From assembly GCA_963833575.1 (NCBI GenBank), contig CAWHXY010000004.1, positions 896,001-960,000 on the forward strand: a DNA stretch of 64,000 nucleotides, in the 5' to 3' direction. The translations under genes were made by a program, and so were the position numbers. Source of the DNA: Candidatus Bathyarchaeota archaeon. Lineage in GTDB: Archaea > Thermoproteota > Bathyarchaeia > Bathyarchaeales > Bathycorpusculaceae. Of this stretch, positions 13,047-57,248 are shown piece after piece. The notes under the pieces are model-generated. The model was not told where the DNA came from. It searched no databases and worked only from the letters and a program-made list of their open reading frames with translations. Every line of letters starts with the position of its first letter. Within the stretch, counting starts at the first letter, position 1.

Positions 13047-14369
13047 TTAGCGTTTTCTGCCCCGAATTATTATAACAATGGCAACGATGGTGCTAGCTGC
13101 GATTACAACGGTTATTGATAACTCTAACTCTCCCAGAGAGAATATATTTGATGTGGGTGAGTTTGAAGACGATTGTTTAGGCGTTGTTTGTGGGTTGCCA
13201 AACGCGTAAATATTGTGGTCCCATGACCCAATGTATACTGTTCCTCCTGCAACTGCGGGAGAAGAACTTACGTGACCTTGGGTTGTGTATGTCCATTTGC
13301 TTGCTCCACTTGAGGCGTTTAGGCAGTAAACATTGTCATCCCAACCTCCCACGTAGACATATCCGCCTGCGACTGCTGGAGACGAATTTACTCCGTCTTT
13401 AGTTGTGTAATTCCATATTTTCTGGCCGCTTGAGGCGTTTAGGCAATAAACGTTTTTATCTGGGTTATCTGATACGCCTGACCCAATGTAAACATAGCCG
13501 TTGGCAACTGCGGGAGAAGAGTCAACCCACCCTTGCGTTGTGTAATTCCACAGTTTTGTTCCTGTTGAAGCATCTAGACAATAAATATTCATATCTTCAG
13601 ATCCTATGTAGACACGGTCGCCGACAACTGCAGGAGAAGACATTATCAGATTCCCAGTCGTGTAATTCCATATCTTACTGCCTGTTAAGGCATCAAAACA
13701 ATAAACGTTGCTATCTGCTGAACCAACATAAACATGGTCGTTGAGGATCGCTGGAGAAGACTCAACAAGGTTTCCGGTTGTGTAATTCCATATTCTAGTG
13801 CCGGTTAATGCGTCAAGGCAGTAAATGTTTCCGTCCCAAGAACCCACGTAAACGTAGCCGTTGGCAACTGAGGGGCAAGATTCCACGGTATTTCCAGTTG
13901 TGAAATTCCACACTTCATTACCTGTAGAAGCATTCAAACAGTACACATTACGGTCATAACTTCCAAAATAGACATAGCCTTCTGCAACAGCAATGGAGGA
14001 ACTTATTGCTGCTGGTCGACCCATAGGTGAGTAGGTCCATACTTGGGACCCATCTGCGGCATTAAGCTTATAGACGGTTCCATCATCGGAGGGTATGTAG
14101 ACGTAACCGTCAACTATTGCAGGCGAAGCCCCTATGGGGTTTTTGGTTGTGTAATTCCAAAGCAAATTGGCAGAAGTTGCGGGTGCTGTACTGGCTGAAT
14201 AGCCTGTGTGAGTTAAGTCGTGATGAAACATCGGCCAGTTATTTGAGGCAGCAGTAGCGAAGGCTTGCAATTCAATCGAAAACAAGAAAGCCATAAGAAG
14301 AATCAAATAGAGAATTTTTGTGATTATGCTTTTCAAAATTTTTGCCCCGCGCTTTGTAAACAAGTCCAT
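13047..14369 (-). CDS. PQQ-like/BamB beta-propeller repeat surface protein
   Basis: Signal peptide, WPMFHHD, about eight SSPAV.GGYVYVGS.D.NVYCL.A.TG..IWNY repeats, C-terminal TM plus basic tail. Confidence 0.92.
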   Translation of the reverse strand: MDLFTKRGAKILKSIITKILYLILLMAFLFSIELQAFATAASNNWPMFHHDLTHTGYSASTAPATSANLLWNYTTKNPIGASPAIVDGYVYIPSDDGTVYKLNAADGSQVWTYSPMGRPAAISSSIAVAEGYVYFGSYDRNVYCLNASTGNEVWNFTTGNTVESCPSVANGYVYVGSWDGNIYCLDALTGTRIWNYTTGNLVESSPAILNDHVYVGSADSNVYCFDALTGSKIWNYTTGNLIMSSPAVVGDRVYIGSEDMNIYCLDASTGTKLWNYTTQGWVDSSPAVANGYVYIGSGVSDNPDKNVYCLNASSGQKIWNYTTKDGVNSSPAVAGGYVYVGGWDDNVYCLNASSGASKWTYTTQGHVSSSPAVAGGTVYIGSWDHNIYAFGNPQTTPKQSSSNSPTSNIFSLGELELSITVVIAASTIVAIVIIIRGRKR

Positions 14370-29944: not shown

Positions 29945-30697
29945 TTATGTTGGGTTGCACGGTTTTCCTTTGTCCCAGTAGTAAAGGAAAAGTTCCCTTG
30001 CCCAGTTCACGAACATTTGGTCTTTGCCGTAGAATGCAGCGTAGTCCATTCTTCCTTCGGTTGAAGGCAGACATATTAAGGCTTCTTTTTCTGTGCAAAC
30101 TATTGTTATTGGGGCGTCGGTGAGAGTTCTTATTTCAATATGTGGGACTTCTCCAGAAACATGATTGAAGTTGGGAAGCCTGCTTTCGCAGCCCATGAAT
30201 CTGAATTTGACTCCTTTGGAGATTGGGCCCGTCATCGCTGGACCTAACGATTCTAGGAGTTTTTCGCCCATAGCCCACGCATACGTCTCGGCTTCGCTAA
30301 ACATGTCACCCGCTTTGTTCATGTTTTCAATTGCGTCCATACTCAGCGTGCTCCTTGATAGCTCGCCTATCCTGTTAACAAACTGGTATGGAAGTCGCCA
30401 AACGTCGTGATTTAAAAAGTACTCTTTGTGCTCGAAGGTAAATTCGAGTGATTGAAGAAGCTGCAGAGTTAATTTACCGTAGTTTGTAATTGCGTACGTT
30501 CCATCAGGGAGTCTCTGAACTATAAGTGTCTCGGTTAGGTGTTGTAGCTGTCTGAAAGCTTCAGTGGCTGTTAGATCCAGCTTTCCGGCTAACTCGTTGT
30601 TTTTGAGATTTCGATCTTTGAGTTCGCGTATTATGCTAAGCCTGCTTTCACTTGCAAGATCAAAAAACAGTTTTTCTATTCCTTCATTTTTTTCCAA
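29945..30697 (-). CDS. ArsR-like wHTH regulator with C-terminal archaeal DUF1724-type domain
   Basis: LFFDLASESRLSII HTH; WARELFLYYW C-terminus. Confidence 0.82.
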   Translation of the reverse strand: MEKNEGIEKLFFDLASESRLSIIRELKDRNLKNNELAGKLDLTATEAFRQLQHLTETLIVQRLPDGTYAITNYGKLTLQLLQSLEFTFEHKEYFLNHDVWRLPYQFVNRIGELSRSTLSMDAIENMNKAGDMFSEAETYAWAMGEKLLESLGPAMTGPISKGVKFRFMGCESRLPNFNHVSGEVPHIEIRTLTDAPITIVCTEKEALICLPSTEGRMDYAAFYGKDQMFVNWARELFLYYWDKGKPCNPT

Positions 30698-30816
30698 GCT
30701 GCCTCACCGATGTTAACGCGTATACACTGCTGTAAACGAGTACACATGCCCGTCAAATAAAACTAATGGGTATTGCGACCTATTTGTATTTTGAAGGAAG
30801 CAAAAATGGCGAATGA
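30665..30816. repeat. Duplicated divergent promoter block, copy 1
   Basis: Clear similarity to 33509-33661 (ACCGATGTTAACGCGTA...CGTCAAATAAAACTAATGGG...ATGGCGAATGA). Confidence 0.9.
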
Positions 30817-33493: not shown

Positions 33494-33541
33494 TCAGGAT
33501 AAGACCAAATACAATTTTTCTATATCTTTGTTTTTTTCCAT
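33494..33541 (-). pseudogene. 15-codon remnant of a paralogue of the 29945-30697 regulator
   Basis: MEKNKDIEKLYLVLS* versus MEKNEGIEKLFFDLAS at the equivalent position of the duplicated block. Confidence 0.75.
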
Positions 33542-33661
33542 GCTTCGTTACCGATGTTAACGCGTACACACTATTGTATTCTAGTACACATACTCGTCAA
33601 ATAAAACTAATGGGGATTAGCGAGCTACTTGTATTCCGAAGGAAATAAATATGGCGAATGA
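33509..33661. repeat. Duplicated divergent promoter block, copy 2
   Basis: Aligns with 30665-30816; both rightward genes start MANE. Confidence 0.9.
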
Positions 33662-48080: not shown

Positions 48081-48917
48081 TTGCCCAATCCCAAATATCA
48101 TATCTACTTAGAATATTCTGAGCTAGATAAGTCTGGAGTGCGCTTCAATATTTCTCAAGAGGAACTTAATCGAACCTTCGCCACACCCTTCAATGCCAAC
48201 CAACCCTTTTGGTTCGCTGGTAGACTTCTCAACCCCATCAAAGCCTCTAAAGTTGTACTCTTCTGGTCGTATGAAACAGCCGATAAACTAAAGCTGCCTA
48301 ACCAAGAAAGCATTGTAGCTGTCAAAGACAAAAAATATCTAATCGAAAGCATTATCAAAGGCAAAGTCAAAGGGGCGTACCTTTGCACAGAAAAATTCTT
48401 AGAGACACCAGAGAGAGCTACTGTACCCACTCAATCGGTAGAGGCTTCTTTGGGAAATACCCGGCGCAGAATTTTCGTTGTTTCTGGCACTGACGATGTA
48501 ATGAAACAAGCTCTTACTGGGTCTTTGACCAAACTTTTGCTATCGCCGGTTATAATTCATGAAGAGCCTGGTTTAGGCAGAAAAATAATAGAACATTTCA
48601 CAGACTACAATGACGTGAAATTTGCCCTAGTTTTGCTCTCCCCAGATGATCATGTTTACTCTAGGGCTGATCCATTCACAAAAAGCAAGCTAAAGCCTCG
48701 TCAAGATGTTATTTTCCTACTTGGCTTCCTGATAGGCGCGCTCGGCAAAGGCAACGTACTTGTATTCTTCAGAGAACACGAAAACTTTGAAATCCCTCTT
48801 GATTTTGAAGGAATAAAATTCACAGCATTCGACGACCGTGACAGTTGGAAACTTGCACTAATACGGGAACTAACTAAAAGCGGGTACACAGTCGACGGAA
48901 AAAGAATTCTAAAATAA
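48081..48917 (+). CDS. Protein with C-terminal Cap12/Pycsar-type TIR-like domain
   Basis: IFVVSG.D, IIEHF, FALVLLSPDD, PRQDVIFLLG...GALG, EIP.DF.GI. Confidence 0.8.
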   Translation: MPNPKYHIYLEYSELDKSGVRFNISQEELNRTFATPFNANQPFWFAGRLLNPIKASKVVLFWSYETADKLKLPNQESIVAVKDKKYLIESIIKGKVKGAYLCTEKFLETPERATVPTQSVEASLGNTRRRIFVVSGTDDVMKQALTGSLTKLLLSPVIIHEEPGLGRKIIEHFTDYNDVKFALVLLSPDDHVYSRADPFTKSKLKPRQDVIFLLGFLIGALGKGNVLVFFREHENFEIPLDFEGIKFTAFDDRDSWKLALIRELTKSGYTVDGKRILK

Positions 48918-49011: not shown

Positions 49012-49084
49012 GCGGTCGTAGTCTAGTTCGGTAGGACATCAGCTTCCCAAGCTGACGACCCGGGTTCAAATCCCGGTGACCGCA
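49012..49084 (+). tRNA. tRNA-Gly (CCC), no intron, CCA not encoded
   Basis: GCGGTCG/TGACCGC acceptor, TCAGC-TTCCCAA-GCTGA anticodon arm, CCGGG-TTCAAAT-CCCGG T arm. Confidence 0.97.
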
Positions 49085-49364
49085 CCTTAATTCACTAAAA
49101 GAAGCTGGCTTTGAGCTTATAGCGTCTTATTGAAATCCCTAAGAAACTTAGCCTTTGTATTAAAATTATTCAAGAAACCTGCATAACTGAGAATCACGCC
49201 TTGGTAAATCTTGGCTTTCTTCTGATTTGATCTTTCAATAAATATTTGTAATTTTAATCAAAGCTATCCTGATAACGCAAATATTCAATCTCTTTTTGGC
49301 TAAGGAACTTAATTTCAGGCGCAGTTGGTAGATGCAACGGTGAGTACCCTTTTTTCATGTGATC

Positions 49365-50165: not shown

Positions 50166-50263
50166 GCTTATCAGTGTCTGAATTTGTTCTTCCTGAATTA
50201 TGTTGAAGCCCTTCCTTAAGGCATTTATCAGTCAGGAGACTCACATAAGCTTTTTTACTAATT

Positions 50264-50284
50264 GTCACAAGTCGAACTTGTTAC
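50264..50284. promoter_or_regulatory. Palindrome GTCACAAGT-CGA-ACTTGTTAC just upstream of TTTAAA box
   Basis: 8/9 symmetric arms; related site at 53508-53528. Confidence 0.7.
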
Positions 50285-50345
50285 TAGTCTTTAAAGGCTC
50301 TTTTTGAATATCGTTGAAGCCACAGAATAAAGGAAAGGAAAAGAA

Positions 50346-52979
50346 ATGGAAAAAACAAGAAATAGAATTGTAACTATTGTGATTGCGATATTTTTAATGA
50401 TTTCAATGTCAGCTTCGATAATGCTAGTGTCGAATGCTAGTGCTCATACTCCTGCTTGGCAGATTCCAACATACGCATATGTGCAGGCTGTGCCTAACCC
50501 TGTGGGTGTAGGCCAGCAAGCGATCATATATATGTGGGTTGACAAGATACCCGATGGAGCAGAACTAGGCAACAGCATTCGATTCCAGAACTACCAACTT
50601 ACCATTACTGCACCTGACAAAACAGTAACAACAAAGACTTTTGCAACTGTCCAAGATCCCACGTCAAATCAGCACTATTATTTCACTCCAACTCAAACCG
50701 GCACATACACCCTTAACTTTACATTCCCAGGATACGCATACACATATACAGGGCTCCTCGCAGGCTTCTTCGGTCCTCCCGCGCCAAGCGATTACGTAAA
50801 TGATACCTATTTGGCCAGTTCAGCATCTACAACGTTTACTGTCCAGAACTCAGCTATACCTACAATTCCAGCCAATCCGCTTCCATCAGCTTATTGGACA
50901 CGCCCAATTTATGGAGAGAACCCTAACTGGTACTCAATTTCATCAAACTGGCTAGGCATCAATGCACCAGGATATACTTCAGGTTACCCTGGTGATGCTG
51001 TGGGTCCTCAAACGGGCCATGTTATGTGGACTAGGTCGGTTCAAAGCGGTGGAGTGGTCGGCGGTAACAACTTTGAAATTCAAGGCGCCACTTACTTCGA
51101 GGGTTCTGCCTACGCTCAAAGATTTGAAGAACCAATAATACTTGATGGAAAACTCTACTATGCAGAACCAATATCGTTCGGGGGCAACAACTACGGGCCA
51201 ACGGACTGCGTTGATCTGCGCACTGGACAGCTTATTTGGTCTCGCACTGATGTACCGCAGCCATCCTTCGGTCTCATATTTGACGTTCAGGAACCCAACC
51301 AACACGGAACTTACCCACCAATACTAATTGATGCTGTTGGGCAAAGCTTCTTTTCGACTGCGTCTGTCTGGAGAGCTTTTGATGCAGACACAGGAGATCC
51401 GATGTTCAACGTAACTAACATTCCTTCAGGCGTAACGGCTATGGGCGCAAATGGGGAATACTTGATATATGTCTTGACAAATGATGGCACTGTTGCACAT
51501 CCTCAGTATTATTTAGCTCAATGGAACTCGTCTAACCTGTGGTCCGGTCAATACAACGGCGCATCAACAACACCATCCGTAGTTCCACCTATAACTGACG
51601 GGAGCAACCCCCTTATGTACGACTGGAACATTTCGATACCCTCACTAAACACCCTGACCTCAACATCTTCTATAGTTGCAGCGTTCACCAACAATATGCT
51701 GATTGGCATGAGCGGCTCCTACCCTGGAGCTCCTAGTTTGTTCAGTGTAGCAAGCTGGTCTCCCTACACATACTTCGGTGTAAACCTTAACGCTACTAAA
51801 GGTGCAGTCGGTTCGATACTGTGGACAAATACTGTTCAACCGCCAGCGGGCAATATTAGTGTCTCATATGCCGGGGCTGATCCAACGGTCGGTGTCTTCG
51901 CTGAAACATATAAGGAAACGATGCAGCGAGTAGGCTTCAGTATGGCGACAGGCAAGCAAATTTGGGGTCCAGTTGGCGATCAAGTGGCCTTCCAATACTA
52001 CAGCACTACTGGATACTACAGCGGCGGAATAGGCGGATGCGTACTTGCTTACGGTAAACTCTACAGCGCTGGATATGGCGGAATAGTCTACTGTTATGAT
52101 CTGAACAATGGGAACCTACTTTGGACTTATGGTAATGGTGGCGAGGGCAACAGTACTAGTATGGATTATGGTGTACGTGGTAACTATCCAACTAGCATAT
52201 ATGCGGTTGGCAACGGCGTGGTGTACACGATTACTACGGAGCATACTGTTCAAACACCAATTTACAAGGGTGCAGAGACACGCGGCATTAACGCTACAGA
52301 CGGAACGGAAATCTATACTCTCGATGATTACTGTGGCTCGTTTGCTACTGCAACAGCTGCTATCGCAGACGGCTTTGCAACAGTTTTCAATGGCTATGAT
52401 AACCAAATTTATAGCATAGGCAGAGGACCTAGCGCCTTAACAGTAGAAGCGCCAAAGACATCAAACGAACTGGGCAAATCGTTGGTAATTGACGGTTCAG
52501 TACTGGATATTTCTGCAGGTACAAAACAGGCACAGCAGGCAGCTGATTTCCCTAACGGTGTTCCAGTGGCATCTGACGCGAGCATGAAGGATTGGATGGG
52601 CTATGTTTACCAACAGAAACCCTTGCCCAGTAACTTTACTGGTGTTCAGGTGACGATCGACGTTTTAGACTCTAATGGCAACTACCGAAACATTGGCACT
52701 GTTAATACTGATGCAACCGGCATGTACAGTTTGTCTTGGAAACCTAACATTTCAGGCAACTACACTGTCGTCGCTACTTTCCACGGCACCAACGCTTATT
52801 GGCCATCGTATTCAGAAACCACTTTCGTAGTAGATCCGGCAGCAGCTACACCAGCTCCAACGACAGCGCCAGTAGCTTCAAACACTGACACATACATTCT
52901 GGCTTCAGCTATCGCAATCATAGTCGTGCTAATCATCGTGGGCGCAATCCTGATGATGATGGTACGCAAACGACCATAA
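50346..52979 (+). CDS. Large secreted PQQ-like beta-propeller surface protein, paralogue 1
   Basis: Signal peptide, PLP..YWTRPIY, propeller repeats, C-terminal Ig-like region, TM, RKRP tail. Confidence 0.9.
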   Translation: MEKTRNRIVTIVIAIFLMISMSASIMLVSNASAHTPAWQIPTYAYVQAVPNPVGVGQQAIIYMWVDKIPDGAELGNSIRFQNYQLTITAPDKTVTTKTFATVQDPTSNQHYYFTPTQTGTYTLNFTFPGYAYTYTGLLAGFFGPPAPSDYVNDTYLASSASTTFTVQNSAIPTIPANPLPSAYWTRPIYGENPNWYSISSNWLGINAPGYTSGYPGDAVGPQTGHVMWTRSVQSGGVVGGNNFEIQGATYFEGSAYAQRFEEPIILDGKLYYAEPISFGGNNYGPTDCVDLRTGQLIWSRTDVPQPSFGLIFDVQEPNQHGTYPPILIDAVGQSFFSTASVWRAFDADTGDPMFNVTNIPSGVTAMGANGEYLIYVLTNDGTVAHPQYYLAQWNSSNLWSGQYNGASTTPSVVPPITDGSNPLMYDWNISIPSLNTLTSTSSIVAAFTNNMLIGMSGSYPGAPSLFSVASWSPYTYFGVNLNATKGAVGSILWTNTVQPPAGNISVSYAGADPTVGVFAETYKETMQRVGFSMATGKQIWGPVGDQVAFQYYSTTGYYSGGIGGCVLAYGKLYSAGYGGIVYCYDLNNGNLLWTYGNGGEGNSTSMDYGVRGNYPTSIYAVGNGVVYTITTEHTVQTPIYKGAETRGINATDGTEIYTLDDYCGSFATATAAIADGFATVFNGYDNQIYSIGRGPSALTVEAPKTSNELGKSLVIDGSVLDISAGTKQAQQAADFPNGVPVASDASMKDWMGYVYQQKPLPSNFTGVQVTIDVLDSNGNYRNIGTVNTDATGMYSLSWKPNISGNYTVVATFHGTNAYWPSYSETTFVVDPAAATPAPTTAPVASNTDTYILASAIAIIVVLIIVGAILMMMVRKRP

Positions 52980-53035
52980 AAAAAGGAAAACAAAAACAAA
53001 AACAACATTTCCCCTTTTTTAGTCTTAAAACAAAT

Positions 53036-53173
53036 GGAGAACAAATTCGGGCTGAGTAGGTTCTGGTTAAACTCACGATACGTGACATAGGATCGTTGAG
53101 AATTTTGCATTTTTTCTTTTTCTCCTAAAAGAAAATTTTTCTGTCCAGAACCTCAGCAAACCCTAAATTCTCC
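53036..53173 (+). ncRNA. Structured repeat element, copy A
   Basis: GGGCTGAGTAGGTTCTGG (53049-53066) pairs with CCAGAACCTCAGCAAACCC (53145-53163); outer GGAGAA/TTCTCC; inner CTCACGAT/ATCGTTGAG hairpin. Confidence 0.65.
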
Positions 53174-53348
53174 AATTTAAATTTAGAATCGGCACCATTT
53201 TGGTTTCAAATTCCACGGACCTGCCGTAAAGAAAATAGATCAGCTTTTCTCCAACTCAGCAAAAATTGTCAGAAATGACACTGGTTGCCAACTTTTAAAA
53301 AGCTGTTTGAAGCAATTAAAACAGTGAAGGAAAAAGCTTAAAATAAGC

Positions 53349-53445
53349 GCTGAATAGGTTTTGGTTTGATCATTATGGTGCAATCGTGATAGTTGACTCG
53401 TATTTGGTTTGTTTTCTCTTAAAGTTTCCAGAGCCTCAGCAAACC
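53349..53445 (+). ncRNA. Structured repeat element, copy B (more diverged)
   Basis: GCTGAATAGGTTTTGG pairs with CCAGAGCCTCAGCAAACC using two U-G wobbles; inner ATCAT/GTGAT hairpin. Confidence 0.55.
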
Positions 53446-53507
53446 TTTGAGGTTACTATTTTTTGGAAACAAAACAAGATTTTTTCTAAACTTTGCGAAG
53501 GCGGTTT

Positions 53508-53528
53508 GGAAGAAGTGGAACTTGTTAC
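53508..53528. promoter_or_regulatory. Second copy of the propeller-gene operator (GGAAGAAGT-GGA-ACTTGTTAC)
   Basis: Same right arm and similar spacing to a TATA-like box as at 50264-50284. Confidence 0.6.
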
Positions 53529-53592
53529 AAAGGCTTAAGCGCACTTTTGGTGTCTAGCATTTTCTAGCTCAATAAAAAATGAAGGAAAAAAA

Positions 53593-56175
53593 ATGAAAAA
53601 CAGAAAAATGAAAAACAGAAAATTTATGCTATCTCTAATTCTCATGATAGTGCTAAGTATGTCAATGATGATGCAAATTCCTCATACTGTACATGCGGCA
53701 TCTACGCTTAATGTGACAGACTATTTGTATGTCAGCGCTGGGCCTAGTCCTGTAGGCGTTGGACAAACCATATACCTTAACCTCTTCTTCACTAAGCCTA
53801 TACCCACAGTCAGCGGTTTCGTTTCTACATTGTACACTGGTATGTCAATCAATGTTATCAAGCCAGATGGAACTAATGAAACTCTCGGACCTTACACGGC
53901 TGATACTACGGGCGGTGTTGGAGGACTTTCATTCGCACCTGCTACAGTTGGAAACTATACTTTCCAAGGAATATTTCCGGGGCAAAATATAGGGACCGAT
54001 GCTACGGGCACGACCTATATTATGGATGCTTCCAATAGCCCTCCTGTTTCAGTTGTCGTTCAACAAGGGCAAATATCGTATAATTCTGGCTCTCCGCTCC
54101 CAACAAACTACTGGACACGCCCAATATACGCATCGAACTTTTACTGGCAAACTATTGGTGGAAACTGGTACGGTTTAGGAAGACCCGCCTTCGACAACAC
54201 TGGTGGATACGATGGAACTGGAAACAACTTCCAACAATACAGCACTGCGCCAACTACTGCTCACATACTTTGGACTAAGGCAACAACAACCGGAGGTCAA
54301 CCTGGCGGCGAAACTATCGCTAATGAAGAGAATGCTTACTCAACAGCATCCCCGCTCTACCACCTATTTGAACCAATAATTCTCAATGGAGTACTTTATG
54401 AAAACTTGTGGGCAGCTCAAACCGATAACGCAGGCATTATTGCAATAGACCTCCGCACAGGACAAACATTGTGGGATCAGAACACTTCTGACGTCTTAAT
54501 TTATGGTCAAGTTGTAAATTTCCACAACAATGAAGAATTTGGCTCTCAAGCATTTCTATGGACATCGCATTTAGCCGGCTATGACGGCATGGGTATGTTT
54601 GGCCCAAATGCAGTCTACGATTATAATATATTGGATCCAGTGACTGGAAATCAGATGGCTACCGTAACCGATGTTCCCAGCAGCATAGCTAATCTCTTCG
54701 GAACATCACCAAGTGCACTTATAGATTCCAATGAAACCAATACCTCAGGAGCAATTCTAATCTACTATTTAGGCGACAGCAATAATCTAATAATGTGGAA
54801 CTCAAGCCAATGTCTTAGTCCTTCCGGCGGATTCGGATCACCCACAGGCTCTTACAAGCCATCAGGATCCTACAACTTTACAGCAGGCATACAATGGTCA
54901 ATCACGCTTCCTAACGCAAACCCAGCATTTGGCATCGCTGAGATGAATAATCAAGCAATACTTTTGAGTTCACATCCACCGACACTTTCTACGTTTGCCG
55001 ACCAATTTGGCGCTGATTTTGCAACTGATGTGGCCTATGATCCCGCTACTGGCGCTAAGCTTTGGGGACCAACTAACCAGACGACAACGAACTTTGATGA
55101 CGTTGGAATAGTTGCTGTAGGAGATGGTGCATACGTCAGACATGACAAAGACACAAATCAACTCTATGGCTACTCACTGACAACTGGCCAACTGCTCTGG
55201 GGACCAACACAACTCGTAGGAAACGCTTTGACCCATCTTTTCGCTTCTGCTGCTATAGCTTACGGTAGAGTTTACATTTGGGACTTCGGCGGCTACGTAA
55301 ATGCTGTTGATCTCAAAACTGGAAAACTCGACTGGACCTACACTCGCGGATCAGCAGGTTATGACACACCCTACGGCATATATCCAATCTGGGTCTACGG
55401 AACACAAACCATTGCTAACGGAATGCTGTTCCTCTCTGAAGGTCGACTATATGATCCACCGCTGTTTCCAGGCGGAGAAAAACTCGCGATAAACTGCACT
55501 GATGGTTCACTTGTCTGGGCAATAAGCGGAGCATTCATGAGATCGCCAAGCCCTGTTGCTGATGGAGAACTGCTTGGATTTAACGGCTACGACAGTCAAA
55601 TATACGCTTTCGGCACTGGACCAACAAGAGTTGCGGTCAATGCACCTGATCCTGTTACGTCTGTAGGTTCGCCTATGATCTTACGCGGCACAGTCACTGA
55701 CATCTCCAGCGGCTCACAACAAGAAGCAGTTGCAGCAAACTTCCCTAACGGGTTACCATGCGTTTCTGACGCTAGTATGACTTCATTTATGGAAGCCGTT
55801 TACGAACAGCAGCCAATGCCAACCAACATTACAGGTGTTCCTGTTACGGTAAGTGTTACTGACTCGAATGGAAACTGCTACAGCATAGGCACTACTTCAA
55901 CTGATCCAAGCGGCATGTTCACGCTAACTTGGGCACCTACAATCTCAGGTAACTATACCGTAACCGCATCGTTTGCAGGCACGCAATCGTATTATTCATC
56001 TTCCGCGGAAACATCCTTCTATGCTACTGCTGCTCACCCAGACACTGCTGCTCCAACAGCTACACCTGTCTCAATTGCTGACCAATACTTCATCCCGCTG
56101 TCAATCGCAATGATTCTCGTAATAATCATAATTGGCGCCATACTTGCAGTACTGTTGCTAAGAAAACGACCATAA
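53593..56175 (+). CDS. Large secreted PQQ-like beta-propeller surface protein, paralogue 2
   Basis: Same architecture as 50346-52979 (YWTRPIY, A.FPNG.P..SDASM, RKRP). Confidence 0.9.
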   Translation: MKNRKMKNRKFMLSLILMIVLSMSMMMQIPHTVHAASTLNVTDYLYVSAGPSPVGVGQTIYLNLFFTKPIPTVSGFVSTLYTGMSINVIKPDGTNETLGPYTADTTGGVGGLSFAPATVGNYTFQGIFPGQNIGTDATGTTYIMDASNSPPVSVVVQQGQISYNSGSPLPTNYWTRPIYASNFYWQTIGGNWYGLGRPAFDNTGGYDGTGNNFQQYSTAPTTAHILWTKATTTGGQPGGETIANEENAYSTASPLYHLFEPIILNGVLYENLWAAQTDNAGIIAIDLRTGQTLWDQNTSDVLIYGQVVNFHNNEEFGSQAFLWTSHLAGYDGMGMFGPNAVYDYNILDPVTGNQMATVTDVPSSIANLFGTSPSALIDSNETNTSGAILIYYLGDSNNLIMWNSSQCLSPSGGFGSPTGSYKPSGSYNFTAGIQWSITLPNANPAFGIAEMNNQAILLSSHPPTLSTFADQFGADFATDVAYDPATGAKLWGPTNQTTTNFDDVGIVAVGDGAYVRHDKDTNQLYGYSLTTGQLLWGPTQLVGNALTHLFASAAIAYGRVYIWDFGGYVNAVDLKTGKLDWTYTRGSAGYDTPYGIYPIWVYGTQTIANGMLFLSEGRLYDPPLFPGGEKLAINCTDGSLVWAISGAFMRSPSPVADGELLGFNGYDSQIYAFGTGPTRVAVNAPDPVTSVGSPMILRGTVTDISSGSQQEAVAANFPNGLPCVSDASMTSFMEAVYEQQPMPTNITGVPVTVSVTDSNGNCYSIGTTSTDPSGMFTLTWAPTISGNYTVTASFAGTQSYYSSSAETSFYATAAHPDTAAPTATPVSIADQYFIPLSIAMILVIIIIGAILAVLLLRKRP

Positions 56176-56237
56176 AAACACCAGACAAAAACAAAAAAAA
56201 AAATCACATCCCTTTTTTTTAGTTTTGAAAAAGCAAT

Positions 56238-56368
56238 GGAGAAAAAATTGGGCTGAGTAGGCTCTGGCTAAGATTCACGAGATAGCAATAGTTCGTGATA
56301 GTGCAGTTGCATTTGTGTTTTTATCCTTTATTTTCTGCGCCAGAGCCTCAGCAAACCCTGAATTCTCC
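56238..56368 (+). ncRNA. Structured repeat element, copy C
   Basis: GGGCTGAGTAGGCTCTGGC (56250-56268) pairs with GCCAGAGCCTCAGCAAACCC (56339-56358); outer GGAGAA/TTCTCC; inner TCACGA/TCGTGA. Confidence 0.65.
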
Positions 56369-56561
56369 AATTGAAATTCAAGACTCGAATCCTTTTGGTT
56401 CAAATTCCATCACAATCGCCGTAAGGGAAAAAAACTTGTTTCTGAAATAGTGTCGTCAATGACGTGGGACTTGAACCGTTCAGATTTAACTCTCTTTGAT
56501 TACATCAATTTCCCAAAAAAACGGGTTTCATATTTAGAAGTGATTTTTCGATCTTTGTATT

Positions 56562-56790
56562 CTACAGAGGAATTATTTCGGCGTCTGCGCAACCGCTGAC
56601 TATTTTGGTGATTCTTACTTTTACGTGTTCGTTAGCTTTTGCATTGCCGATGAAGACTGGAAAACCTTTGATTTTGGCTATGCCTTCTCCGTTTGGGCTC
56701 ATATCGACGACGTCCACTTCATATTCGTCTCCAATTTCAAAGGGGTAATCAATTCCTCTGCCTCTATTTTTGGCATTTCTTGGGGCTCGT
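56562..56790 (-). CDS. Stand-alone TRAM-domain protein; no canonical in-frame start found upstream of the domain
   Basis: Manual translation PFEIGDEYEVDVVDMSPNGEGIAKIKGFPVFIGNAKANEHVKVRITKIVSGCADAEII; absent from ORF track. Confidence 0.7.
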
Positions 56791-57002: not shown

Positions 57003-57248
57003 ATGCTACCTACTCCAAGTTACACCCAATACATTTATTGTCCAAATTGCAGATCACAAGTGCCTGCTTTCTCAAACTACTGCAATATATGCGGGACAAA
57101 AATACGTCTACCCATGCTGCTGAAAATTTGTCCGAAATGCCAAACCCGAATACTAGCTACCGCGAAATTTTGCCCAGAATGCGGGCAAAAACAAAAATTC
57201 AACAATGAAGAAAAATCTAATGTACCGCAGGCGGCAAACCCCTGCTAG
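57003..57248 (+). CDS. Double zinc-ribbon protein
   Basis: CPNC, CNICG, CPKC, FCPECG. Confidence 0.8.
   Translation: MLPTPSYTQYIYCPNCRSQVPAFSNYCNICGTKIRLPMLLKICPKCQTRILATAKFCPECGQKQKFNNEEKSNVPQAANPC

Follow-up and report, generated by a model that had tools for sequence, protein, structure and literature searches.

A 64,000-nucleotide (nt) stretch of a Candidatus Bathyarchaeota archaeon genome (GenBank assembly GCA_963833575.1, contig CAWHXY010000004.1, positions 896,001 to 960,000 of the forward strand), referred to here as the window, contains three copies of a conserved structured element of ~110 nt (range about 95-125 nt) that recurs behind the genes of one surface-protein family and whose interior is the reverse complement of the translation start regions of that family. 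The element family exists, its helices covary, it is linked to genes in position and strand, and its complementarity is enriched for the family. From these observations we infer transcription of the sense strand, pairing in the cell, and repression as the outcome, and we think it about evenly balanced whether the element acts as a module of sense-strand RNA by which start sites throughout the surface-protein family are masked. In the mechanism we propose, genes for secreted, membrane-anchored beta-propeller proteins would be followed immediately by the element on the sense strand, and the segment of the element from the loop of an internal hairpin (P3) to a pyrimidine tract would pair with the start regions of family mRNAs, masking the Shine-Dalgarno (SD) sequence and the AUG. 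Masking would lower or coordinate translation of the whole family, either in trans, with every family member a potential target, or in cis on the mRNA that carries the element. Three origins of the RNA are conceivable: transcription running through a T-run, initiation at its own promoter, or processing.

Soils, peat, and sediments harbor abundant Bathyarchaeia, archaea that are uncultured and about whose gene regulation, to our knowledge, almost nothing is known. The genome studied here has ~31 large genes in one secreted beta-propeller surface family, and more than half of them have the element behind them. If start-site masking is correct, the element would be the first regulatory RNA family described for Bathyarchaeia, an instance, rare in archaea, in which translation initiation is controlled from gene 3' ends, and an example of a gene family that carries its own family-wide antisense regulator. 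Among the papers retrieved on Bathyarchaeota and non-coding RNA, none concerned such an element, judged by title.

Distribution of the element and linkage to surface-protein genes

Two members of the surface-protein family lie on the plus strand of the window. Paralogue 1 (family gene g57; 50346..52979) encodes an 877-amino-acid (aa) protein with a signal peptide, a PQQ_2 beta-propeller (Pfam E 8.2e-08), an Ig-like domain, and a C-terminal transmembrane anchor, and ends in ...VRKRP. Paralogue 2 (53593..56175) encodes an 860-aa protein of the same family, with a PQQ_2 beta-propeller and an Ig-like domain and the end LLLRKRP. BLASTP identified 31 family members among 2228 crude open reading frames (ORFs) of the genome, and relatives of these surface proteins were found in metagenome-assembled genomes (MAGs) of Candidatus Bathyarchaeota and Bathyarchaeia. 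Neighboring genes of the window, for topoisomerase VI, ABCE1, and TrmB, are archaeal.

The three copies of the element in the window are all on the plus strand. Copy A (53049..53163) begins 69 nt past the stop codon of paralogue 1, is foldable, and scores 100.2 bits with a covariance model of the element, and copy C (56250..56358), 74 nt past the stop codon of paralogue 2, scores 104.5 bits and has a minimum free energy of -37.2 kcal/mol (z -3.0). Copy B (53347..53446; 69.9 bits) is more diverged, stands solo between the two paralogues, and folds weakly (z -0.71). The 5' motif of the element occurs at these three places in the window (53049, 53347, and 56250) compared to 0.02 expected occurrences. 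Screening all 2.75 Mb of the assembly with a regular expression produced 27 candidates, two of which (C2_45954 and C6_271226) were dropped because their interiors are not element-like; the covariance model built from the 25 sequences kept finds 27 copies in the genome. These copies are only ~70% identical, as mean column identity.

Outside this genome (G000), the element follows a narrow lineage. We refer to its genus as g1 and to four other genera as g16, g23, g26, and g27; G052 is a genome of genus g16. Within the genus, the covariance model matches 27 of the 36 other species; it also matches both genomes of genus g16 and has no match in 22 further genomes of the same order. In a class-wide draw the element is present in 10 of 151 genomes, all from families f1 (g1, g23, g26, and g27) or f7 (g16), and absent from the ~130 genomes of 29 other families in that draw. 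The element is thus lineage-specific, being found in five genera of two families within one order. It also matches no Rfam family and would be an undescribed structured RNA: when the whole window was compared with Rfam 15, the gathering score was reached by tRNA only, and a permissive scan of 52900-56700 returned three chance-level matches (E 6-8, 16-20 bits compared to cut-offs of 37-55).

The position of the element relative to the surface-protein genes is constant. Eighteen of the 27 copies in G000 lie 59-74 nt past the stop codon of an ORF of 825-1008 aa on the same strand, and these ORFs have a signal-peptide-like N-terminus, a C-terminal hydrophobic stretch, and the end RK(R/K/H)(P/A/Q). 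Two of the remaining copies are behind other ORFs (at 109 and 226 nt) and seven have no such ORF nearby. In G052, 14 of 16 copies are 41-59 nt past family genes of 831-858 aa, the gene-element spacing is similar in g23, g26, and g27, and in other MAGs 24 of 71 family loci have the element in the 400-nt flank 3' of the gene match. Between stop codon and element, both in the copies of this genome and in other species, an A-rich stretch is followed by a conserved TTTCCCCTTTTTTAGTC and then by TCTTAAAAAGCAATGGAGAA-like sequence. In front of copy A the TTTCCCCTTTTTTAGTC block (53008..53024, plus strand), a candidate oligo-T terminator or part of a promoter, is kept across species. Upstream of copy C is a C-rich/T-run block, TCCCTTTTTTTTAGTT (56209..56224, plus strand), conserved among the copies of this genome and across species, and directly 5' of copy C is the purine-rich, pseudo-SD-like AATGGAGAAAA (56235..56245, plus strand), which recurs upstream of many copies.

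Two other similarities between the paralogue loci concern their flanks. A 43-nt block that is 72% identical between 50262-50304 and 53506-53548, ~45-85 nt upstream of the paralogue start codons, contains a TATA-like sequence (CTTTAAAGG or GCTTAAGCG) and is probably the family promoter. The 3' flanks of copies A and C (53166-53235 and 56361-56430) are similar for ~70 nt past the element, and within them is a hairpin that differs by a compensatory change (CTAAATT...AAATTTAG compared to CTGAATT...AATTCAAG), a likeness that probably reflects tandem duplication of a 3.2-kb unit.

Secondary structure and coding strand

The element is closed by a conserved stem, GGGCUGAG(W)AGGCUCUGG ... CCAGAGCCUCAGCAAACCC, in which P1a (GCUGA/UCAGC), a 3-nt bulge (GWA), and P1b (GGCUCUGG/CCAGAGCC) follow one another. 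Inside this stem are hairpins P2 (CACGA...UCGUG) and P3 and an unpaired pyrimidine tract, and beyond it is the 3' tail AAACCC. The loop of P3 presents UUUGCAUU, and a near-invariant unpaired UUUUCUCCU stands behind P3. In copy C, P1a pairs 56252-56256 with 56348-56352, the 5' bulge is 56257-56259, P1b pairs 56260-56267 with 56340-56347, P2 pairs 56276-56280 with 56293-56297, P3 pairs 56301-56305 with 56314-56318 around a loop at 56306-56313, and the tail is 56353-56358. The pyrimidine motif is predicted to be accessible, with model probabilities of being unpaired of 0.82 for CUCCU and 0.62 for GCAU compared to 0.41 for the whole element.

Comparison between species supports this structure. In an alignment of 34 sequences from 30 genomes, which was fitted to the model and so is biased toward the structure, 93.6% of cells are paired compared to 34-42% when the partners are slid, changes on both sides occur in 16 of 21 pairs, and none of 500 shuffles was as good. 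For example, the P3 stem appears as GAGCA/UGCUC, ACGCA/UGCGU, and AAAGAAA/UUUCUUU, and in copy C as GUGCA/UGUGU with three G-U pairs. The sequence hardly varies in P1a, in either bulge, or at the GGG/AAACCC ends, and P1b, P2, and P3 covary. G-U combinations exceed A-C combinations in three alignments (24:9, 34:15, and 29:14), and gene-linked copies share the strand of their gene in every case (18 of 18 in G000, 14 of 14 in G052, and 27 of 27 matches in the 71 family loci). The G-U excess, together with this constant co-orientation, favors an RNA read from the plus strand.

The reverse arrangement, in which the opposite strand is functional and supplies a real SD and AUG as a decoy start site or for a tiny peptide, would account for the AGGAG-N10-11-ATG that the minus strand has in every copy. 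The minus strand of copy C also folds comparably (-34.0 kcal/mol, z -3.9). However, the minus-strand ORFs that begin at this ATG range from 13 to 104 codons and have unrelated sequences, for which reason a small minus-strand ORF was rejected, and the insertions and deletions in P2 are not multiples of three. With the plus-strand G-U excess and an orientation that is always that of the upstream gene, function of the opposite strand seems to us so improbable that we place it last.

A different objection is that the element could be a repeat at the level of DNA with no RNA function, either a MITE-like (miniature inverted-repeat transposable element) sequence or a site of recombination or inversion, with P1 as its terminal inverted repeats and with an interior that descends from a family 5' end copied long ago in inverted orientation. 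Sharp element borders and unrelated downstream flanks would fit such a repeat, as would arms that form an 18-nt imperfect inverted repeat, the existence of many copies including solo ones (9 of 27 are not behind a large family gene), and the fact that, as double-stranded DNA, a family start region is the interior motif of the element inverted. We consider this quite unlikely, however, given the compensatory changes in internal helices and the predominance of G-U over A-C, a mean identity of ~70% rather than the near-identity that follows recent transposition, flanks that show by eye no consistent target-site duplication, and the constant strand and distance to the upstream gene. In addition, the start of a gene and the motif of its own element are too diverged to be recombination cores. 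A MITE or other small mobile element was rejected on the duplications, the identity, and the compensatory changes, even though inverted arms are present.

Complementarity to start regions of the family

The element interior is the reverse complement, perfect over up to 25 nt, of the consensus start region of the family, AGGAGAAAAAGAAAAAAUGCAAAUU. Family start regions are themselves conserved (e.g., ttAGGAGAAAAGAAAAATGAAAAT and aaAGGAGAAAAAGAAAAAATGCAAATT), and the antisense span covers the SD AGGAG, the A-rich spacer, the AUG, and the first two codons. The unpaired UUUUCUCCU, which sits 59-74 nt plus ~70 nt past the stop codon, complements AGGAGAAAA of the family starts. For example, the start of gene C4:397533 is a 25-nt perfect complement of class-I element interiors, and the anti-start segment of copy A, UUUUGCAUUUUUUCUUUUUCUCCUAA (53103..53128, plus strand), is the reverse complement of the family consensus from SD through spacer to AUG and has as its best target among 2226 start sites the family gene g39 (-32.1 kcal/mol). 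A fuzzy scan of the genome for AGGAGAAAAAGAAAAAATG with at most three errors gave 63 sites, of which ~17 start ORFs of 855-1008 codons, ~20 are elements read backwards, and the rest are miscellaneous.

A reading of the window made earlier from its letters alone (the sequence-only reading) had proposed that the loop is antisense to the SD and start codon of a gene of this propeller family. Duplex energies bear out antisense complementarity to the family. They were computed between 26-nt segments from 26 elements and the start regions of 2226 ORFs, the start codon being taken by rule as the best ATG within the first 40 codons rather than from annotation. Mean energy is -15.81 kcal/mol for family starts (n = 31) compared to -9.51 kcal/mol for the 2195 other ORFs (Mann-Whitney p 5e-13, a value that overstates independence because paralogues and copies are related by descent). 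Family genes occupy ranks 1, 2, 3, 4, 7, 9, and 11; the best of all starts is a family gene for 18 of the 26 elements, and a family gene is among the top three for 23. Segments shuffled 40 times gave -9.36 +/- 0.23 kcal/mol and reversed segments -9.23 kcal/mol, so base composition does not explain the pairing with the family. The CAU and UCCU positions of the loop, moreover, are kept in further copies of the element.

The pair of sites to which the sequence-only reading drew attention is one instance of this pattern. It matched 56310-56332 (CATTTGTGTTTTTATCCTTTATT, plus strand), termed there the loop of the element, with 50326-50348 (AATAAAGGAAAGGAAAAGAAATG, plus strand), the start region of paralogue 1, which has an SD-like AAGGA and ends in the ATG of ORF 50346-52979. 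The count of 18 Watson-Crick and two G-U pairs in 23 ungapped positions was reproduced by script, and copy A indeed reads GCATTTTTTCTTTTTCTCCT at 53107-53126. In the structure described above, 56310-56332 starts in the P3 loop, of which it takes in the 3' part (CAUU), and runs through the 3' strand of the P3 stem (UGUGU) and the single-stranded conserved pyrimidine motif (UUUUAUCCU, 56319-56327) into five further nucleotides. When both strands of the genome were scanned, at least 20 pairs of any kind were found at 91 of 5,500,322 positions, and at least 20 pairs with at least 18 of them Watson-Crick at three: the antisense of the loop itself, the paralogue-1 start, and one other, all ending in ATG. 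With pairing anchored at the ATG, at least 20 pairs to the copy C loop are formed by 5 of 2228 ORFs, one of them a family gene, and at least 18 pairs by 65 ORFs, including 9 of the 31 family genes. These genome-wide and anchored counts show that the match beats chance. By RNAduplex energy of the 26-mer, however, paralogue 1 is 15th of the 31 family targets for copy C, and the pair of copy C and paralogue 1 is therefore not privileged. The part of the match that goes beyond chance is complementarity to the family as a whole.

Specificity among paralogues

The sequence-only reading had gone further and envisaged that each locus may make a guide-like RNA, its scaffold constant and its loop variable, that silences sister paralogues and leads to mutually exclusive expression of surface proteins. 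The analysis does not support this part of it. Rather than varying, the anti-start sequence is the same in nearly all copies and species, and the targeting segment is among the best-conserved parts of the element, with columns T63-T65, T70-T72, and TCTCCT invariant or at least 90% conserved, and likewise across 30 genomes. A gene is no better a target for its own element than other family genes are: in three sets compared by permutation, own and non-own pairs have energies of -12.9 and -14.4, -15.2 and -15.0, and -12.4 and -12.9 kcal/mol (p 0.99, 0.42, and 0.75). Nor are neighboring paralogues preferred, as they rank from 5th to 31st of the 31 family targets. The two paralogues of the window rank 229th (paralogue 1, with a mean energy over the 26 elements of -13.6 kcal/mol) and 709th of the 2226 start sites, and the best targets of the 26 elements collapse onto just five genes (g39, g28, g51, g75, and g44). 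With a conserved loop, no preference for the own gene, and low ranks for the paralogues, we see no evidence for variable guides or paralogue-specific silencing.

Some observations do agree with a guide. Ranked by Watson-Crick pairs, the match between the copy C loop and the paralogue-1 start comes first among non-self ungapped matches in the genome, and own genes have low ranks among the targets of their elements. In G000, the start regions of the 14 family genes that lack an element also match the anti-start segment better than those of the 18 that have one (-17.2 compared to -14.4 kcal/mol, two-sided p 0.032); six of the 14 (g28, g62, g22, g51, g35, and g46, on C4, C5, and C7) begin with ATGCAA compared to one of the 18, which mostly begin with ATGAAA. 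This difference is the sole hint in the sequences toward mutually exclusive expression, and it was not reproduced among 47 genes of other MAGs (for genes with and without the element, -14.6 compared to -15.7, p 0.31). Taken together with the conserved loop, the five shared targets, and the energy rank of paralogue 1, this makes guides with variable loops very unlikely in our estimation.

Concerted change between genera

Element interiors and start regions change together across genera, a pattern in the sequences that supports start-site masking and falls short of proof. In g16 the element interior reads UUUUUUCAUUUUUUCACCUUC or ...CAUUCCUUC and the family starts read GAAGGUGAAAAAAUGAAAAAAC or GAAGGAAUGAAUAAAUG, and in g23 the interior is UCUUCUCUUCUCCU and the starts are AGGAGAAUAGAAGAAUG. 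Elements of g1 have a mean energy of -14.3 on g1 starts compared to -9.8 on g16 starts, and elements of g16 have -15.0 on g16 starts compared to -12.2 on g1 starts. In a matrix of five by five lineages, the interaction terms for the own lineage are all negative (-1.1, -4.0, -1.7, -2.3, and -0.3), the last and smallest being that of g27; lineages are few, and the g26 and g27 sets comprise 2-6 sequences (four elements and two starts for g26).

The element could instead be a structured RNA with another job, such as a scaffold for a protein, a stability or 3'-end module, or a terminator or insulator of surface-protein genes with high expression. The C/U-rich motif would in that case bind a protein, and its similarity to an anti-start sequence would be a coincidence or a secondary trait. 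A nearly invariant P1a, bulges, and GGG/AAACCC ends combined with covarying P1b, P2, and P3 are a pattern typical of protein recognition, and both the fixed position right behind the conserved T-run and the lack of preference for the own gene fit such a role. It would leave unexplained, though, the 25-nt perfect complement spanning spacer, AUG, and two codons, the lineage-specific changes common to spacer and SD, and the large gap to the shuffled and reversed controls. We therefore regard another job as unlikely, while giving it real weight.

Transcription signals and RNA coverage

Several points weigh against family-wide masking of start sites. The conserved T-run between stop codon and element is a potential mRNA terminator, and T-runs 3' of the element are not enriched (21 of 56; control windows, 20 and 15 of 56). 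Nine public runs contain part of the stretch, and four peat metatranscriptomes were compared as assembled contigs, which give neither ends, strand, nor expression level and are no guide to absence. In these, relatives at 90-95% identity cover the coding regions of the paralogues at a word depth of 10-100, and coverage of the element is sparse at a depth of 2-12, consisting of a 135-nt contig at depth 2.1 (X4) and two pieces at depth 5-12 (X8). The absence of preference for the own gene speaks against gene-by-gene tuning in cis. The rule-based choice of start codons, the common descent of paralogues and copies, the small g27 term, and the small sets behind two of the five genera likewise limit the pairing evidence, and a single ancient inverted copy of a family 5' end could have started the pattern. 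As for a promoter of its own, an A/T-rich block at -27 to -19 of the element resembles the TATA boxes of the tRNA genes of this genome.

The closing stem partly resembles a bulge-helix-bulge (BHB), the substrate of archaeal splicing endonuclease. A BHB is defined as a 4-bp helix flanked by two 3-nt bulges on opposite strands, and the intron in the 5' untranslated region (UTR) of Haloferax HVO_1309 is an archaeal BHB substrate outside tRNA and rRNA (PMC7714728). In the stem of the element a short helix separates two bulges that lie on opposite strands, with the strand order of a BHB, which is also that of the tRNA-Ser(GGA) intron of this genome. Unlike the canonical form, the helix has either 5 bp and bulges of 3+3 nt or 4 bp and bulges of 3+4 nt, and the outer helix is only GGG/CCC, which is absent from the predicted fold and does not covary. 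The genome has predicted introns in 8 of 44 tRNA genes and two separate genes of the EndA family (tRNA_int_endo; C7:351219-351458 and C6:37209-37463, 203 and 198 aa), which fit a two-subunit splicing endonuclease. One X8 RNA contig (depth 5.28) runs from 53442, in the 3' AAA bulge, through one extra C to 56259, where the 5' GWA bulge ends. A permuted join of this kind is what a circular product would give, and it may represent a circular or spliced RNA. At the DNA level, the junction in element context was found 0 times in the own genome, 60 other genomes of the genus gave four chance matches only, and it was found 0 times in element context among the metagenome matches listed (117 loci).

One possible extension of these likenesses is that the element is a self-contained regulatory cassette whose closing stem, a relaxed BHB, would be cut by the two-subunit endonuclease to release a stable, possibly circular RNA of ~100 nt, with an exposed loop that masks SD and AUG of the family in trans. 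Paralogues bearing the cassette would then silence those without it, giving a hierarchical or exclusive choice of cell-surface coat in Bathyarchaeia. We hold this to be a long shot; if true, it would amount to an RNA-based archaeal analogue of antigenic variation.

Comparison with known systems

The closest parallels to masking of start sites by the element come from three kinds of regulatory RNA. In Staphylococcus aureus, a C/U-rich anti-SD sequence downstream of the icaR coding region reportedly pairs with the SD region and controls translation. Base pairing between the 3' UTR and the 5' UTR of icaR mRNA is among the points made in the published account (PMC3868564). The element shares with icaR a pyrimidine-rich, SD-complementary motif 3' of the stop codon. 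However, icaR is a single bacterial gene that acts on its own mRNA, whereas here a module of ~110 nt stands behind ~18 paralogues per genome in an archaeon, its complement extends over the spacer, the AUG, and two codons, it has no preference for its own gene, and a T-run separates it from the coding region.

Small RNAs (sRNAs) that mask ribosome binding sites are a second parallel. LhrC is a multi-copy sRNA family of bacteria with pyrimidine-rich loops. In archaea, sRNA162 of Methanosarcina mazei is reported to be a trans-acting sRNA that masks a ribosome binding site (PMC3510493). Like these sRNAs, the element has a pyrimidine seed, predicted to be exposed, that is complementary to SD and start, multiple copies, and surface-protein genes as its potential targets. 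Unlike them, it is attached to the 3' ends of the very gene family that it matches, and it has neither an enrichment of terminator-like T-runs nor an Rfam model.

A third parallel is offered by bacterial sRNAs that derive from mRNA 3' ends. Those of the NarS and CpxQ type are reportedly made by RNase E or from internal promoters and use Hfq. NarS and CpxQ are reported to be sRNAs from mRNA 3' ends (PMC9438474, PMC7038943). The element resembles them in being a regulator, if it is one, at the 3' end of an mRNA through which one mRNA could influence others, and differs from them in that its proposed targets are the paralogues of its own host gene. None of these three kinds of RNA joins a multi-copy structured module on a paralogous family to the antisense of the starts of that family.

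Known motifs and mobile sites were also considered. K-turn, hammerhead, and attC do not fit by eye when compared with their consensus motifs. Integrons have cassette arrays with an imperfect palindrome, the attC site, after each gene and an adjoining integrase; the copies of the element are dispersed over four contigs behind the paralogues of one family, without cassette arrays, and attC was rejected.

Additional features of the window

Other parts of the window have features of separate interest. A 278-aa ORF (48081-48917, plus strand) with a CAP12/Pycsar-type TIR effector domain (Pfam PF10137, E 1.6e-22) is a candidate defense gene beside tRNA-Gly(CCC) (49012-49086). At 13206-13957 are six tandem units of 120-135 nt with 61-81% identity, presumably a repeat domain within a coding region. 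Two blocks of ~150 nt, 2.84 kb apart (30663-30816 and 33507-33661), are 80-83% identical, end in ...AAAATGGCGAATGA, and look like the duplicated gene starts of another pair of paralogues. The only sizeable plus-strand ORF downstream of copy C (57003-57248) encodes 81 aa with repeated CxxC, resembling a zinc ribbon.

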